Sequence record: LR746311
From: Shigella phage vB_SsoM_113
DNA length: 64,000 nucleotides
Strand: one strand, 5' to 3'
Each line of letters starts with the position of its first letter. Positions within the stretch are counted from its first letter, which is position 1. Below the pieces are notes generated by a model that saw only the letters and a program-made list of their open reading frames with translations, was not told where the DNA came from and did no database searches. The position numbers and the translations under genes were made by a program. Below, in pieces: positions 11,440-30,223 of this stretch.

Positions 11440-11775
11440 ATGTCTGAAGTACAACAGCTACCAATTCGTGCTGTCGGTGAATATGTGATTTTAGTTTCTG
11501 AACCTGCACAAGCCGGTGATGAAGAAGTTACAGAATCAGGGCTTATTATCGGTAAACGCGTCCAAGGCGAAGTTCCTGAACTGTGTGTAATTCACTCTGT
11601 TGGTCCTGATGTTCCTGAAGGTTTCTGTGAAGTTGGTGATTTGACTTCTCTTCCAGTTGGTCAAATTCGAAACGTTCCGCATCCTTTTGTAGCTCTGGGT
11701 CTTAAGCAGCCAAAAGAAATTAAACAAAAATTTGTTACCTGTCACTATAAAGCTATTCCGTGTCTTTATAAGTGA
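11440..11775 (+). CDS. 31: co-chaperonin GroES homologue for capsid folding
   Basis: 111 aa; recognised as T4 gp31; AAGGA upstream. Confidence 0.93.
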
Positions 11776-11783
11776 TATAAATA
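11776..11783 (+). promoter_or_regulatory. late promoter TATAAATA upstream of rIII
   Basis: Exact TATAAATA directly after gene 31 stop; about 140 nt upstream of rIII ATG. Confidence 0.55.
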
Positions 11784-11922
11784 ATAATATGAATTGGGTG
11801 TCGGAATAATAAGTTAACCGAACAATTCTATGTGGTAGTCTACAACTGAGAGATCTGTCGAAAGAAGATGAAATTCAGAAGAACGTGACTACCGAGTTTT
11901 AATCTCTAACGAGAATTTTTAA

Positions 11923-12171
11923 ATGATTAAACAATTACAACACGCTCTTGAACTGCAACGAAACGCATGGAATAATGGTCACGAAAACTATGGCGCATCT
12001 ATTGATGTTGAAGCCGAAGCTCTTGAAATCCTGCGTTATTTCAAACATCTGAATCCTGCTCAAACTGCATTAGCTGCTGAGCTTCAGGAAAAAGATGAAC
12101 TTAAGTATGCTAAGCCTCTGGCTTCTGCCGCACGAAAAGCAGTTCGTCACTTTGTGGTAACACTGAAGTAA
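11923..12171 (+). CDS. rIII: RIII lysis-inhibition accessory protein
   Basis: 82 aa; position after gene 31 and length match T4 rIII. Confidence 0.8.
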   Translation: MIKQLQHALELQRNAWNNGHENYGASIDVEAEALEILRYFKHLNPAQTALAAELQEKDELKYAKPLASAARKAVRHFVVTLK

Positions 12172-12567
12172 TTTATTGGAGATTCACTGCCTTAGTGTGA
12201 GCTAAAATCGAGGAGCCGTCGAACTGTCTGATTAATGATTTGCGAATCATTATAGTTTTAAGACCCCGGCAGTTTTACGGTGTACCTCTTGAATGTTATT
12301 CTTATAGCGGCAAGTGCATGCTACCCCGAGGTGATGGCCAATCGGGAGTACGCCTCAAGGCCTATATATCCATCAGTATATATCTTATCCTCGAGAAATC
12401 GAACCCGGAACCTTTAAGCTAACGGTGTGCAACAGATAAGAGTTATAAGTATGATGACGGGTTTATGGTTATCCTGTCGGTAAATACTCAAAACCTAAGT
12501 ACCCCCTTGAGGGCTTTCGCAGGCAATGCCAATAAGTCCTGCATTTTCATTTAAAAGAGAATTTATA
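12172..12567 (+). other. 396-bp non-coding, GC-enriched, hairpin-dense gap (candidate structured RNA or degraded insert)
   Basis: No ORF with an RBS; GC about 44% by hand count over 12181-12540; several hairpins (e.g. 12233-12252, 12216-12226/12270-12280, 12383-12389/12435-12441, 12456-12461/12473-12478). Confidence 0.4.
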
Positions 12568-12744
12568 ATGGCAAAACAAGCTAAAGCAAAGAAAGCAGTT
12601 GAAAAGAAAGTTGGTGATTCTAAACGCGCTGGTTACAAGCGTGGGTCGAACTCTCGTATCAATCAAACTGTTGAGAAGATCATGCGCCGAGCACGTGCGG
12701 TTCTTCGAGATGATGCTTCTCGTTTTGGTAAGCAGAAAGCATAA
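12568..12744 (+). CDS. small highly basic protein (30.9-like position)
   Basis: 58 aa from ATG 12568 (MAKQAKAKKAVEKK...); alternative in-frame ATG at 12526; followed by a strong terminator. Confidence 0.5.
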   Translation: MAKQAKAKKAVEKKVGDSKRAGYKRGSNSRINQTVEKIMRRARAVLRDDASRFGKQKA

Positions 12745-12749
12745 GTTGA

Positions 12750-12778
12750 GGACTCCTTCGGGAGTCCTTTTTTATTTT
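12750..12778 (+). terminator. rho-independent terminator
   Basis: GGACTCC-TTCG-GGAGTCC (12750-12767) followed by TTTTTTATTTT. Confidence 0.8.
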
Positions 12779-12797
12779 CCAAAGACTGCACAAAGTT

Positions 12798-12827
12798 GTT
12801 TACAGTATGGTTCCTTTGTGATAGTAT
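12798..12827 (+). promoter_or_regulatory. T4 early-type promoter with SD-sequestering hairpin
   Basis: GTTTAC 12798-12803, 18-nt spacer, TAGTAT 12822-12827; stem 12812-12819/12840-12847 overlaps AAGGAG 12843-12848. Confidence 0.45.
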
Positions 12828-30000: not shown

Positions 30001-30168
30001 ATGTCAGATAAGATTTGTGTTGTCTGTAAAACTCCAATCGATTCTGCATTGGTTGTTGAAACAGACAAAGGTCCTGTACATCCTGGGCCTTGTTATAATT
30101 ACATTAAAGAACTACCAGTTTCAGAAAGTTCGGAAGAACAATTAAATGAAACACAACTTTTGCTATAG
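30001..30168 (+). CDS. small Cys-rich (zinc-ribbon-like) protein (uvsY.-2-like), absent from ORF track
   Basis: Read manually: ATG 30001 after GAGGAG, 55 codons MSDKICVVCKTPIDSALVVETDKGPVHPGPCYNY..., stop TAG 30166-30168; terminator follows. Confidence 0.45.
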   Translation: MSDKICVVCKTPIDSALVVETDKGPVHPGPCYNYIKELPVSESSEEQLNETQLLL

Positions 30169-30191
30169 TGTGACCTTTAGTCTATAGTTTT

Positions 30192-30220
30192 GGCCCTTCC
30201 TTTTTGGTTGGGCCTTTTTT
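30192..30220 (+). terminator. rho-independent terminator ending the uvsY transcription unit
   Basis: GGCCC ... GGGCC stem (30192-30196/30210-30214) followed by TTTTTT. Confidence 0.65.
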
Positions 30221-30223
30221 AAT

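Follow-up and report, generated by a model that had tools for sequence, protein, structure and literature searches.

The gap between rIII and 30.9 in Shigella phage vB_SsoM_113 carries, at positions 12305-12445 on its plus strand, an RNA that belongs to a phage-specific family whose members are ~140 nt long, and the gap as a whole is a non-coding concatenation of RNA structure modules. Positions refer to the window, by which we mean the entire 64-kb stretch of DNA analyzed. We favor the explanation that this RNA family is autonomous and acts in trans on one specific partner, likely in host takeover or counter-defense, to which we give a probability of roughly 0.55. The family appears to be new, judging from its lack of any detectable relative; the newness refers to the family and not to its mechanism.

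The gap opens after the end of rIII (12171) and closes at the start of a 30.9 homologue (12568; phrog_1427, E 2e-31). A first-pass annotation had singled it out as the only long stretch without a credible gene, and 12172-12525 (354 nt) is indeed the largest ORF-free stretch in the window, counting ATG-initiated ORFs of 60 aa or more on both strands; the runner-up, 30003-30223 (221 nt), was dropped as a second gap, and consists of an ordinary small ORF plus a terminator. The hand-counted G+C content of ~44% for 12181-12540 is reproduced by computation (44.2%), with the whole gap at 41.9% against a window mean of 35.8% (the top 6.7% of 396-nt windows) and its center, 12305-12445, at 47.5% (the top 1.6%). 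The flanking genes had been described as AT-rich, but the immediate neighbors are equally G+C-rich (rIII, 41.8%; 30.9, 44.1%), and only genes farther away are AT-rich. The 60-aa ORF at 12240-12422 is, as suspected, not a credible gene: it has no PHROG hit, and no frame is open family-wide. Members of the RNA family share no conserved reading frame, nearly all have stops in all six frames, and their indels are not multiples of three. A homology search gave no PHROG match, so that the conserved protein-coding ORF named beforehand as evidence against an RNA was not detected, and covariation was found instead. In GenBank, the RNA region is either unannotated or overlaid with spurious "hypothetical proteins" called on either strand.

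Thermodynamics alone lends modest support to structure, and it is the comparative evidence that is decisive. Shuffle tests give z = -1.89 for the fold of the whole gap (2/100 shuffles) and z = -2.55 for 12200-12296, and the central 141 nt (z = -0.77 on the plus strand, +0.75 on the minus strand) are not unusual in single-sequence stability. Among 26 distinct sequences, aligned by fitting to the covariance model, 98.3% of cells pair and 30/43 pairs have compensatory changes, and the covariation score of 0.53 compares with 0.07 or less in slid controls and is reached in 0/500 shuffles; RNAalifold on a model-independent MAFFT alignment returns 22/43 pairs with compensatory changes. Covariation in related phages, whose absence was to have counted against an RNA, is thus present. 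The alignment contains 50 G-U cells versus a single A-C cell, and therefore the RNA lies on the plus strand and the constraint acts at the RNA level. A mutual-information scan for extra tertiary pairs was uninformative, being dominated by a two-clade split. The proposal of a structured non-coding RNA is accordingly strong for 12305-12445 by comparative evidence; for the candidate pseudoknot at 12456-12495 the evidence is moderate.

The fold (Table 1), for which the covariance model R1 gives one match in the window, is predicted to be a four-way junction in which P1, the P1a-P2 arm, P3, and P4 (carrying P5 and P6) meet without linker nucleotides, a call that depends on P1a. The P1a helix is itself a prediction, with no covariation test because it is invariant. 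P1 varies among members as UAGC/GUUA, AAAC/GUUU, AAGC/GCUU, AUAC/GUAU, ACAC/GUGU, AAUC/GAUU, GUAG/CUAC, and UUAG/CUAA, and it lengthens to 8 bp in this phage through 12301-12304/12446-12449. The P2 and P3 arms are held side by side by a 6- to 7-bp loop-loop kiss. This kiss was spotted by inspection and tested afterwards, and at least six contiguous pairs form in 13/13 distinct combinations, with a mean of 3.9 bp in mismatched-partner controls; the six different complementary L2/L3 pairs are CGAUGG/CCAUCG, UGAUGG/CCAUCA, CUAUGG/CCAUAG, CAAUGA/UCAUUG, UUGUAUU/AAUACAA, and UGCAUUU/GAAUGCA. Most of P6 is invariant and hence outside covariation testing, and a C-G to U-A change in it is found in Slopekvirus copies. 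Altogether 49 positions are invariant, 27 of them unpaired, and the unpaired ones lie in two blocks, the P1a/P2 internal loop (GGCAAGKGCAUG...CUNNNG; K is G or U) and the P4 sub-junction (ACCYGGA...GCUAACRGUGWGCAACRG; Y is C or U, R is A or G, W is A or U). With these invariant positions, a junction, and a covarying kiss, the RNA would almost certainly bind something specific.

Table 1. Features of the rIII-30.9 gap and of the RNA family member that it holds
Feature	Position	Strand	Remarks
Module A, long imperfect hairpin	12210-12288	+	GAGG/CCUC closing pairs; stem 12216-12229/12267-12280; inner UGCG hairpin 12233-12252
Cassette (154 nt) holding the 141-nt RNA	12297-12450	+	T4 has 2 nt (GA) instead
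141-nt four-way-junction RNA, whole fold	12305-12445	+	R1, 168 bits
P1	UAGC 12305-12308 / GUUA 12442-12445	+	All 4 pairs covary
P1a-P2 arm, whole	12309-12362	+	
P1a	GGC 12309-12311 / GCC 12360-12362	+	Predicted; invariant
P1a/P2 internal loop	AAGUGCAU 12312-12319 / CUCAAG 12354-12359	+	Invariant
P2	12320-12329 / 12342-12353	+	Two bulges; 9/10 pairs compensatory
P2 2-bp tip	12330-12331 / 12338-12339	+	
L2 (UGAUGG)	12332-12337	+	Kisses L3
P3 hairpin (UAUAUAU / GUAUAUA) with loop L3	12363-12382	+	4/7 pairs compensatory
L3 (CCAUCA), 6-nt loop	12370-12375	+	Kisses L2
P4 domain, whole	12383-12441	+	
P4	12383-12389 / 12435-12441	+	5/7 pairs compensatory; encloses P5 and P6
P5	12391-12394 / 12399-12402	+	GAAA loop; 4/4 pairs compensatory
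P6	12403-12407 / 12423-12428	+	One bulge; 15-nt loop GAACCUUUAAGCUAA; 2/5 pairs compensatory
Joiner GCAACA inside P4	12429-12434	+	Conserved
Module C, candidate H-type pseudoknot	12456-12495	+	Preceded by conserved UAUGAUG
Module C stem 1	GACGGG 12456-12461 / CCUGUC 12473-12478	+	
Module C stem 2	GGUU 12467-12470 / AACC 12492-12495	+	
Module D, short hairpin motif GUACCC(N)GGGCUU	12499-12518	+	
Module E	12519-12567	+	Hairpin GCAGG 12519-12523 / CCUGC 12538-12542, read from sequence

The helices listed in the first-pass annotation find their places within these modules. The 8-bp stem with a UGCG loop is present at 12233-12240/12245-12252 by reading of the sequence; the longer 11-nt helix around it, 12216-12226/12270-12280, exists but pairs at 10/11 positions, with one C.U mismatch and one G.U pair. 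The 7-bp stem UCUUAUC/GAUAAGA is P4 of the 141-nt RNA, and the 6-bp stem downstream is stem 1 of the candidate pseudoknot; P1, P2, P3, P5, P6, and the kissing loop had been overlooked.

The 141-nt RNA behaves as a self-contained cassette, with precise presence or absence among close relatives and occurrence in two unrelated genomic contexts. Its bounds come from alignment of rIII-30.9 spacers together with the T4 sequence, and the Tequatroviruses KarlGJung and PECP20 have an unrelated cassette of ~48 nt at the same point. The comparison with T4 and other T-even phages that had been suggested gives a split answer: the outer modules are conserved, but 12297-12450 is absent from T4 and present in many relatives, and the gap is a mosaic whose outer parts T4 also has. 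In T4, the RNA is absent from the rIII locus, from uvsY-uvsW (a 55-bp spacer), and from the tRNA/rnaC/rnaD region, and 30.9 and modules A and C-E are kept intact despite this absence. Phage records matching any part of the gap number 993, and in 179 of these a single region covers 80% or more of it; the 141-nt RNA itself is carried by about 400 sequenced T4-like phages, ACG-C40, JS98, KpV477, and phiEap-3 among them, from more than 10 genera. Across related genera its identity to the window is 93/90/83/78%, versus 74/72/71/67% for rIII, the first of these values being for Tequatrovirus to Jiaodavirus. The suggestion of a decayed inserted element therefore stands as to insertion, relative to T4, but not as to decay, since conservation exceeds that of the flanking genes.

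We found no match to the RNA among 28 Gb of E. coli genomes or among the plasmids of PLSDB, and covariance-model matches in 596 Gb of bacterial genomes were all below 19 bits. A host or plasmid origin, whether of the RNA or of the other modules, was dropped, since blastn against E. coli genomes and plasmids gave no match. Loose motif scans of IMG/VR, bacterial genomes, and metagenomes gave ~180 extra loci, which, T4-like ones excepted, are chance matches by the covariance model, and therefore exact-motif scans provide no distant relatives outside enterobacterial Straboviridae. Literature searches, including exact sequence strings, returned no description of the element, and one string search gave papers on ToxI only. 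The proposed scan against Rfam 15 (cmscan, 4227 models) yielded no match in 12172-12567 at E <= 10 with lax filters, nor did a gathering-threshold scan of the whole window, and scans at the RNA in seven related loci gave no consistent match.

The second genomic context bears directly on whether the RNA is autonomous. Divergent copies (86 to 103 bits) lie in eight uvsY-type loci, six of which were inspected with annotation and belong to Slopekvirus, Pseudotevenvirus, or an unassigned straboviral genus (JC221). Here the RNA is placed between the convergent genes uvsY.-2 and uvsW.1, and is followed by ~200 to 400 nt without a conserved ORF and then a bidirectional terminator, with no downstream gene on the same strand. 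A late-promoter-like [T/C]ATAAATA ends 5 to 8 nt before P1 in 3/4 distinct upstream sequences, with a perfect TATAAATA in phiEap-3; the fourth (the GAP161 group) lacks the motif. The uvsY-type RNA would thus apparently start directly at P1 from a late-promoter-like site of its own, and an autonomous RNA is favored over a leader of 30.9 because this copy lies behind such a motif with no gene downstream. In the window, a late promoter (TATAAATA) is found at 11776 and a terminator at 12748-12769, and no promoter-like or terminator-like site was found on the plus strand within 12172-12567; the RNA would be produced as part of the rIII-30.9 transcript between these two signals. The terminator hairpin and an early promoter that follow 30.9 (12748-12827) read as a PeSL cassette.

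A cis-acting leader, in which the fold as a riboswitch-like aptamer senses a ligand or protein, perhaps gp30.9, and sets translation or stability of 30.9, is possible but in our judgment unlikely. In all Tevenvirinae loci examined the RNA does lie on the coding strand, after rIII and before 30.9 with no intervening terminator, gp30.9 is small and very basic, and the 141-nt fold matches the typical build of riboswitch aptamers, which combines a junction, kissing loops, invariant internal loops, and a covarying P1. Nonetheless, P1 has no abutting expression platform and no terminator after it, the spacing between the RNA and the start of 30.9 ranges from 41 to 182 nt and is taken up by unrelated modules that differ and are shuffled in order, and T4 and many relatives lack the RNA but retain 30.9 and its proximal leader. 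The Slopekvirus and Pseudotevenvirus copies have no same-strand gene downstream, and Rfam riboswitches give no match even at E = 10; an aptamer coupled to the expression platform of a conserved downstream gene, as expected for a riboswitch, is not what we see. The earlier suggestion of a long leader for the protein at 12568 is possible for 12451-12567, which T4 also has, and unlikely for the central RNA, since the T4 30.9 leader is intact without the cassette and the distance is variable. That the RNA is a new self-cleaving ribozyme or a processing signal, cutting the rIII-30.9 transcript or trimming its own ends, we regard as quite improbable: small self-cleaving ribozymes are common in phage genomes, and the intercistronic position and the many invariant unpaired nucleotides in a compact junction fold are consistent with one, but the RNA is unlike every Rfam ribozyme class, at 141 nt it exceeds known small self-cleavers, and no cleavage site is marked.

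We give very little credence to a DNA-level or junk feature, such as a decaying mobile element, a recombination site, or an overlooked small gene. Precise presence or absence relative to T4 and the "hypothetical proteins" in GenBank fit such an explanation, but the RNA is better conserved than its flanking genes, its compensatory changes are strand specific (as the G-U and A-C counts indicate), six-frame stops, non-triplet indels, and the absence of PHROG hits oppose a gene, and the terminal pairing P1 covaries and is not a conserved inverted repeat. Antitoxin mimicry, by which the RNA, with or without neighboring modules, imitates the RNA antitoxin of a type III (ToxIN-like) defense so that the toxin RNase stays inactive during infection, would be one particular form of the trans-acting explanation that we favor, and one that we consider doubtful. 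Phage phiTE reportedly escapes ToxIN through a pseudo-ToxI RNA, and in Jiaoda- and Marfaviruses a near-complete ToxI unit, matching 29/32 collinear positions of the 36-nt ToxI repeat, ends 2 nt before P1; ToxI-like units occur in 198 phage records, and the Jiaodavirus unit is not flagged by Rfam either. In the window, the RNA and ToxI have four exact 7- to 9-mers in common (ACCTTTAAG, TGCTACC, AAGTGCA, and AGGTGAT), which 0/2000 dinucleotide shuffles reach, although the comparison is post hoc and the words are in scrambled order, not collinear with ToxI. Two of them fall where positions covary or vary, in the kissing loop and a P2 strand, and divergent family members lack most of them. In ToxI, 36-nt pseudoknot units are arrayed in tandem and are cut apart by ToxN, whereas the gap contains no direct-repeat family and no tandem repeats of the ToxI kind, the RNA is single copy, and no intact ToxI unit was found in the window with up to three mismatches allowed; blastn of its spacer against E. 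coli genomes and plasmids likewise gave no match. The two are alike as small, structured, phage-borne RNAs with no coding capacity, but the window RNA is a single 141-nt junction fold without collinearity to ToxI, and the likeness weakens in divergent members.

Comparison with other known RNAs places the element near several classes. With riboswitch aptamers it has in common a covarying P1, a multi-helix junction, parallel arms joined by Watson-Crick loop-loop pairing, and invariant internal loops and joiners; the L2-L3 contact of the purine riboswitch and the P2-P3 loops of the lysine riboswitch are parallels, as are the four-way junctions of SAM-I, NiCo, and yybP-ykoY. It differs in having no Rfam match or adjacent platform, in being confined to phages, and in that some copies have no downstream gene. 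phi29 pRNA, ROOL, and GOLLD are phage- or prophage-borne RNAs with elaborate conserved folds that are not cis-regulatory, and the window RNA resembles them in being phage-borne with an elaborate conserved fold; it is much smaller than ROOL and GOLLD and has no match in the Rfam comparison. T4-like packaging motors are not known to need a pRNA. T4 rnaC and rnaD (species 1 and 2 RNAs) are late RNAs "of yet unknown functions" (PMC9697503). Like the window RNA, these are non-coding, of similar size (~120 to 140 nt), from the same phage group, and behind late promoters, but they map to the tRNA cluster and undergo processing together with tRNAs, and T4 has them and not the window RNA; homology was rejected, with no R1 match to T4 70908-71171 with filters off and no tRNA genes in the window, where ARAGORN predicts 0 tRNA or tmRNA genes. 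PeSLs are promoter-early stem-loop cassettes of T4-type phages (PMC2839356, PMC4122927), and are similar in being short non-coding cassettes at module borders in hyperplastic regions, tied to insertion, deletion, and shuffling; they combine a terminator-like hairpin with an early promoter as DNA or transcription signals, whereas the 141-nt RNA has neither and is constrained as an RNA fold. Several other resemblances were discarded: on the minus strand, a GGTTCGATT-like string that suggests a tRNA complements P5-P6 and lacks T-arm pairing, and a likeness by eye to 16S rRNA helix 27 (GGGAGUACG..CAAGG) involves a 9-mer expected by chance, with no blastn match in E. coli genomes. A search of the window for antisense targets, using complements of the two longest invariant single-stranded blocks, returned the element itself or chance-level matches only.

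The outer modules have their own histories. Module A is also in the T4 spacer with the same sequence except for one U-A to U.G change in the stem, variation too small for a covariation test, and its interior is deleted in phage VIPECOOM03. In module C (n=11 sequences), 90.9% of cells are paired, 4/9 pairs are compensatory, and the score is 0.35 versus 0.14 or less in slid controls; it lies downstream of the 141-nt RNA in this phage and upstream of it in Jiaoda-, Marfa-, and Muldoonvirus. An AUGAUG mini-ORF in module C was rejected, with neither length nor frame conserved. Module D is present as a single copy in the window, and recurs at module borders in most related spacers, the uvsY-type loci included; its GGGCUUG motif was rejected as a MotA box of a middle promoter because there is no correctly spaced -10 and the downstream sequence is unconserved. 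The hairpin of module E is followed by an A/U-rich stretch and then the 30.9 ribosome-binding region (AAGAG, 12555-12559), and the module is kept in T4; in Jiaoda-, Moon-, Karam-, Marfa-, and Roskildevirus (Cronus) another structured module takes its place.

In the trans-acting explanation that we favor, the RNA would fold by itself, and its invariant loops would form a pocket that binds a single specific partner, either protein or small ligand, without controlling 30.9. Host takeover or counter-defense, with the RNA as a decoy or sponge, would be the most likely functional class because of the patchy, dispensable distribution, the hypervariable accessory region, and the abutting ToxI mimic of Jiaodavirus. 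A bolder extension, which we put forward tentatively as an outside chance, is that the spacer between rIII and 30.9 in T-even-type phages forms an island of counter-defense modules made of RNA alone, in which the 141-nt RNA would be an immune decoy or sponge for an RNase toxin (type III, ToxN family), another RNA-binding effector, or a signaling nucleotide, beside simpler mimics such as the Jiaodavirus ToxI unit. If true, viruses would have a further class of anti-immune factor, new in consisting of a complex folded RNA and not of protein.

T4-like phages rank with the best-studied viruses and are in wide use in therapy cocktails, yet this RNA was overlooked, probably because T4 itself lacks it. 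The natural presence/absence variants, together with compensatory mutations that can be designed in the kissing loop, make the question directly testable, and a new class of functional RNA would be gained by identifying the partner. Be it a ligand sensor, a ribozyme, or an immune decoy, any outcome would mean that the "hyperplastic" spacers of these phages encode RNA-level functions besides small proteins.

The gap between rIII and the 30.9 homologue (12172-12567), singled out in the first-pass annotation as a long stretch without a credible ORF, is indeed the longest ORF-free stretch within the window, and the observation is both real and stronger than was suspected there: its central 141 nt (the central RNA) define a structured-RNA family that is new and has strong support, carried by T4-like phages that infect enterobacteria. 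The window phage is a Tequatrovirus, with phage ACG-C40 as its closest record over the gap (99.5% identity). We found no promoter-like sites inside the gap on either strand and no terminator-like sites on the + strand, and because a late promoter precedes rIII and a terminator follows 30.9, the gap is expected from its sequence to be transcribed as an internal spacer of an rIII-30.9 RNA. The terminator hairpin and early promoter at 12748-12827 fit the pattern of PeSL, described in PMC2839356 as a 'mobile regulatory cassette' of T4-type phages; weak Rfam matches to Atu_C8 and Phe_leader there are simply the terminator.

Coordinates of features in and around the gap (window positions unless a locus is named)
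Feature	Position	Strand	Remarks
cd, 31.2, 31.1, then gene 31	11440-11775 (gene 31)	+	5' of rIII
Late-promoter consensus TATAAATA	11776		ahead of rIII
rIII	11923-12171	+	gene 5' of gap
Module A	12210-12288		long hairpin, common to T4 and window
P1	12305-12308 / 12442-12445	+	8 bp in window phage
P1a	12309-12311 / 12360-12362	+	invariant
P2	12320-12329 / 12342-12353	+	
L2	12332-12337	+	6-nt P2 loop, UGAUGG, complementary to L3
P3	12363-12369 / 12376-12382	+	
L3	12370-12375	+	6-nt P3 loop, CCAUCA, complementary to L2
P4	12383-12389 / 12435-12441	+	
P5	12391-12394 / 12399-12402	+	
P6	12403-12407 / 12423-12428	+	
Module C	12456-12495		candidate H-type pseudoknot, moderate covariation support
Module D	12499-12518		short hairpin, GUACCC(N3-5)GGG(G)CUUG motif
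Module E	12519-12542		hairpin directly 5' of 30.9 ribosome-binding site
30.9 homologue	12568-12744	+	gene 3' of gap
Intrinsic terminator	12748-12769		UUCG-loop hairpin, 3' of 30.9
T4-type early promoter	12799-12827		TTTACA 12799-12804, 17-nt spacer, TAGTAT 12822-12827; between 30.9 and 30.8
30.8		+	3' of 30.9 homologue
Single ToxI-like unit	L002:1965-1995 (Klebsiella phage KpV477)		rIII-30.9 spacer; also L015, L016, L034

Comparison of its copies shows how the central RNA folds. When 20 distinct copies were aligned with MAFFT, RNAalifold predicted a consensus with 43 pairs, of which 22 show compensatory changes; the resulting covariance model finds a single copy in the window (12305-12445, 168 bits). 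Among 26 distinct sequences, standard pairs fill 98.3% of cells and 30 of the 43 pairs have changed on both sides, covariation that bears out the earlier suggestion of a structured non-coding RNA. The covariation score is 0.53; displacing partners by one to three columns lowers it to 0.07 or less, and none of 500 shuffles attained 0.53. G-U cells far exceed A-C cells (50 to 1 in these 26 sequences), and the constraint therefore acts on the + strand RNA. Helices P1, P1a, P3, and P4 abut without unpaired nucleotides and would form a perfect four-way junction, although this depends on P1a, a helix whose invariance leaves it unproven. A loop-loop pairing of L2 with L3 (the kiss), spotted by inspection and tested afterwards, has six or seven contiguous pairs in each of the 13 distinct loop combinations, which between them employ six different sequence pairs, versus a mean of 3.9 pairs with mismatched partners; it supersedes the innermost RNAalifold pair, which had weak support. 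Invariant positions number 49, 27 of them unpaired, and they concentrate in two places, the P1a/P2 internal loop (GGCAAGKGCAUG; CUNNNG) and the P4 sub-junction (ACCYGGA; GCUAACRGUGWGCAACRG). The four helices named in the first-pass annotation are all found in the sequence, and folding energies deviate only mildly (z of -1.89 over the whole gap, -2.55 over 12200-12296, and -0.77 over the centre). The reported G+C enrichment holds relative to the window (44.2% over 12181-12540 versus 35.8%; 47.5% in the gap centre), but the flanking genes are not AT-rich as claimed (rIII, 41.8%; 30.9, 44.1%).

A conserved coding ORF is not found: all six frames are interrupted by stop codons in almost all members, indels among members are not multiples of three, and no local ORF matches a PHROG. 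GenBank 'hypothetical proteins' over the central RNA are mutually inconsistent, lie on either strand (L001:1557-1751; L002:2078-2221, minus; L011:995-1129; comparison loci in their own coordinates), and are almost certainly spurious calls. The central RNA is better conserved than its neighbouring genes, with Tequatrovirus-to-Jiaodavirus identity of 93% compared with 74% for rIII and 68% for gene 31, and its identity declines in step with phage relatedness (99, 93, 90, 83, 78, and 70%). Searches for it in Rfam 15 (even at E = 10), E. coli genomes, and plasmids all came back empty; when 596 Gb of bacterial genomes were scanned with exact motifs, only chance matches (<19 bits) appeared, and IMG/VR and metagenome scans returned T4-like phages only. 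ARAGORN reports no tRNA or tmRNA genes in the window, the T4 orphan RNAs rnaC and rnaD proved unrelated, and a literature search that included exact sequence strings found no published description.

Comparison with T4 and its T-even relatives reveals the gap as a mosaic, partly present in T4 but lacking its centre there. Some part of the gap is matched by 993 phage records, but most of it by only 179. The 244-bp T4 spacer contains module A in its 5' part and modules C-E in its 3' part, with just 'GA' in place of a 154-nt cassette (12297-12450) that carries the central RNA; an unrelated insert of ~48 nt (TACTATCATGCGTCAGAAAAGTGTTATCTGTGTAAGTCTTGGTG) at this point in Tequatroviruses KarlGJung (L004:925-975) and PECP20 (L005) makes a third allele, and a further Tequatrovirus variant has a deletion within module A. 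Searched on its own, the cassette has matches in 407 records, 395 of which cover at least 80% of it, at 74-99% identity and always directly 3' of rIII, in Tequatro-, Dhaka-, Moon-, Jiaoda-, Karam-, Marfa-, Muldoon-, Roskilde-, and Kagamiyamavirus and more. The distance from the central RNA to 30.9 varies from 41 to 182 nt among loci, and module order differs.

Module C, 3' of the central RNA here, is 5' of it in some genera; the conserved UAUGAUG at its start opens a 10-codon mini-ORF (12451-12483) here and in Jiaodavirus, with the same UAA ending both, but in T4, Cronus, EcS1, and COW86c this frame is interrupted or displaced, no ribosome-binding site precedes it, and judging from the sequence it is probably untranslated. 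The module D motif, present once in the 64-kb window, recurs at rIII-type and uvsY-type loci alike (L009, L010, L011, L013, L137, L138, L140), either beside the central RNA or where modules meet, 5' of the central RNA in some and 3' in others, and may mark a site of processing or a recombination joint. Another shuffled structured module is present in the window's gene 31-rIII spacer (11832-11896) and at L002:2150-2215, L007, L008, L012, L014, and L015; its closing stem surrounds the invariant CUACAAC ... GAAGAACGUG together with an inner GAAA hairpin. In Tequatro- and Dhakavirus, T4 included, this module is 5' of rIII, but Jiaoda-, Moon-, Karam-, Marfa-, and Roskildevirus have it 5' of 30.9; 7 of its 17 predicted pairs have compensatory changes among six sequences, and Rfam gives no match.

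Divergent copies of the central RNA (86-103 bits) occur in Yersinia phage JC221 and in Slopekvirus/Pseudotevenvirus members (phiEap-3, GAP161, K41P2, CPRSA, and others), away from rIII and between convergent uvsY.-2 and uvsW.1, with all helices and the kiss kept through many compensatory changes. A late-promoter-like [T/C]ATAAATA, perfect TATAAATA in phiEap-3, ends 5-8 nt 5' of P1 in three of four distinct upstream sequences. On the 3' side, ~200-400 nt without a conserved ORF precede a bidirectional terminator, and because this stretch is conserved and non-coding (L137:1650-1890, L140, L009:1550-1960; example GGCGUACUCUUUUGCGCCGUCCGAUGGAGUUUACCUUCGGCGGGGUGAUUGAUAAC), its sequence suggests a longer composite non-coding transcript. 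The T4 spacer of this type is only 55 bp, and no central RNA copy is present in the three T4 loci scanned (this spacer, the rIII locus, and the tRNA cluster).

The central RNA is thus a self-contained folding unit placed in two unrelated spots and is dispensable for T4; in one lineage its flanking signals suggest a late transcription unit of its own, without a gene to regulate. Because of these properties, and because neither distance to 30.9 nor module order is fixed, we favour an autonomous, probably trans-acting RNA over the regulated 30.9 leader proposed earlier, a role that the 3' modules may well have. Its architecture, a junction with parallel arms clamped by the kiss and with invariant loops, resembles those of aptamers, ribozymes, and RNP cores, which form a precise pocket. 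A cis-regulatory aptamer would share this architecture, but is unlikely given the unfixed position relative to 30.9; a ribozyme, to which the same resemblance extends, is more doubtful still.

A special case of an autonomous partner-binding RNA would be mimicry of ToxI, the RNA antitoxin of the ToxIN abortive-infection system (36-nt repeat sequence from PMC8610362). In Jiaoda- and Marfaviruses, the 31 nt ending 2 nt before P1 align with the P. atrosepticum ToxI repeat, with identity at 29 of 32 positions; Rfam does not flag this Jiaodavirus-type unit. A tripled ToxI query finds single units in 198 phage records from very different families (162 Klebsiella phages; also Salmonella SE131, Eos, XT18, PWKp9S, Vibrio JSF12, and Yersinia TG1), and the window has no intact unit. 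Four exact 7-9-mers are common to ToxI and the window's central RNA, a level reached by none of 2,000 dinucleotide shuffles, but this comparison was post hoc, the shared words are in scrambled order and partly at variable positions, and divergent members have lost most of them. Antitoxin mimicry is improbable, and we treat the link of ToxI to the central RNA as a hypothesis.

The best-supported reading, to which we assign a probability of roughly 0.55, is that the central RNA is an autonomous partner-binding RNA. By analogy with pocket-forming RNAs, it may bind one specific partner through its invariant loops, and its accessory, patchy distribution would best fit a function in host takeover or counter-defence.
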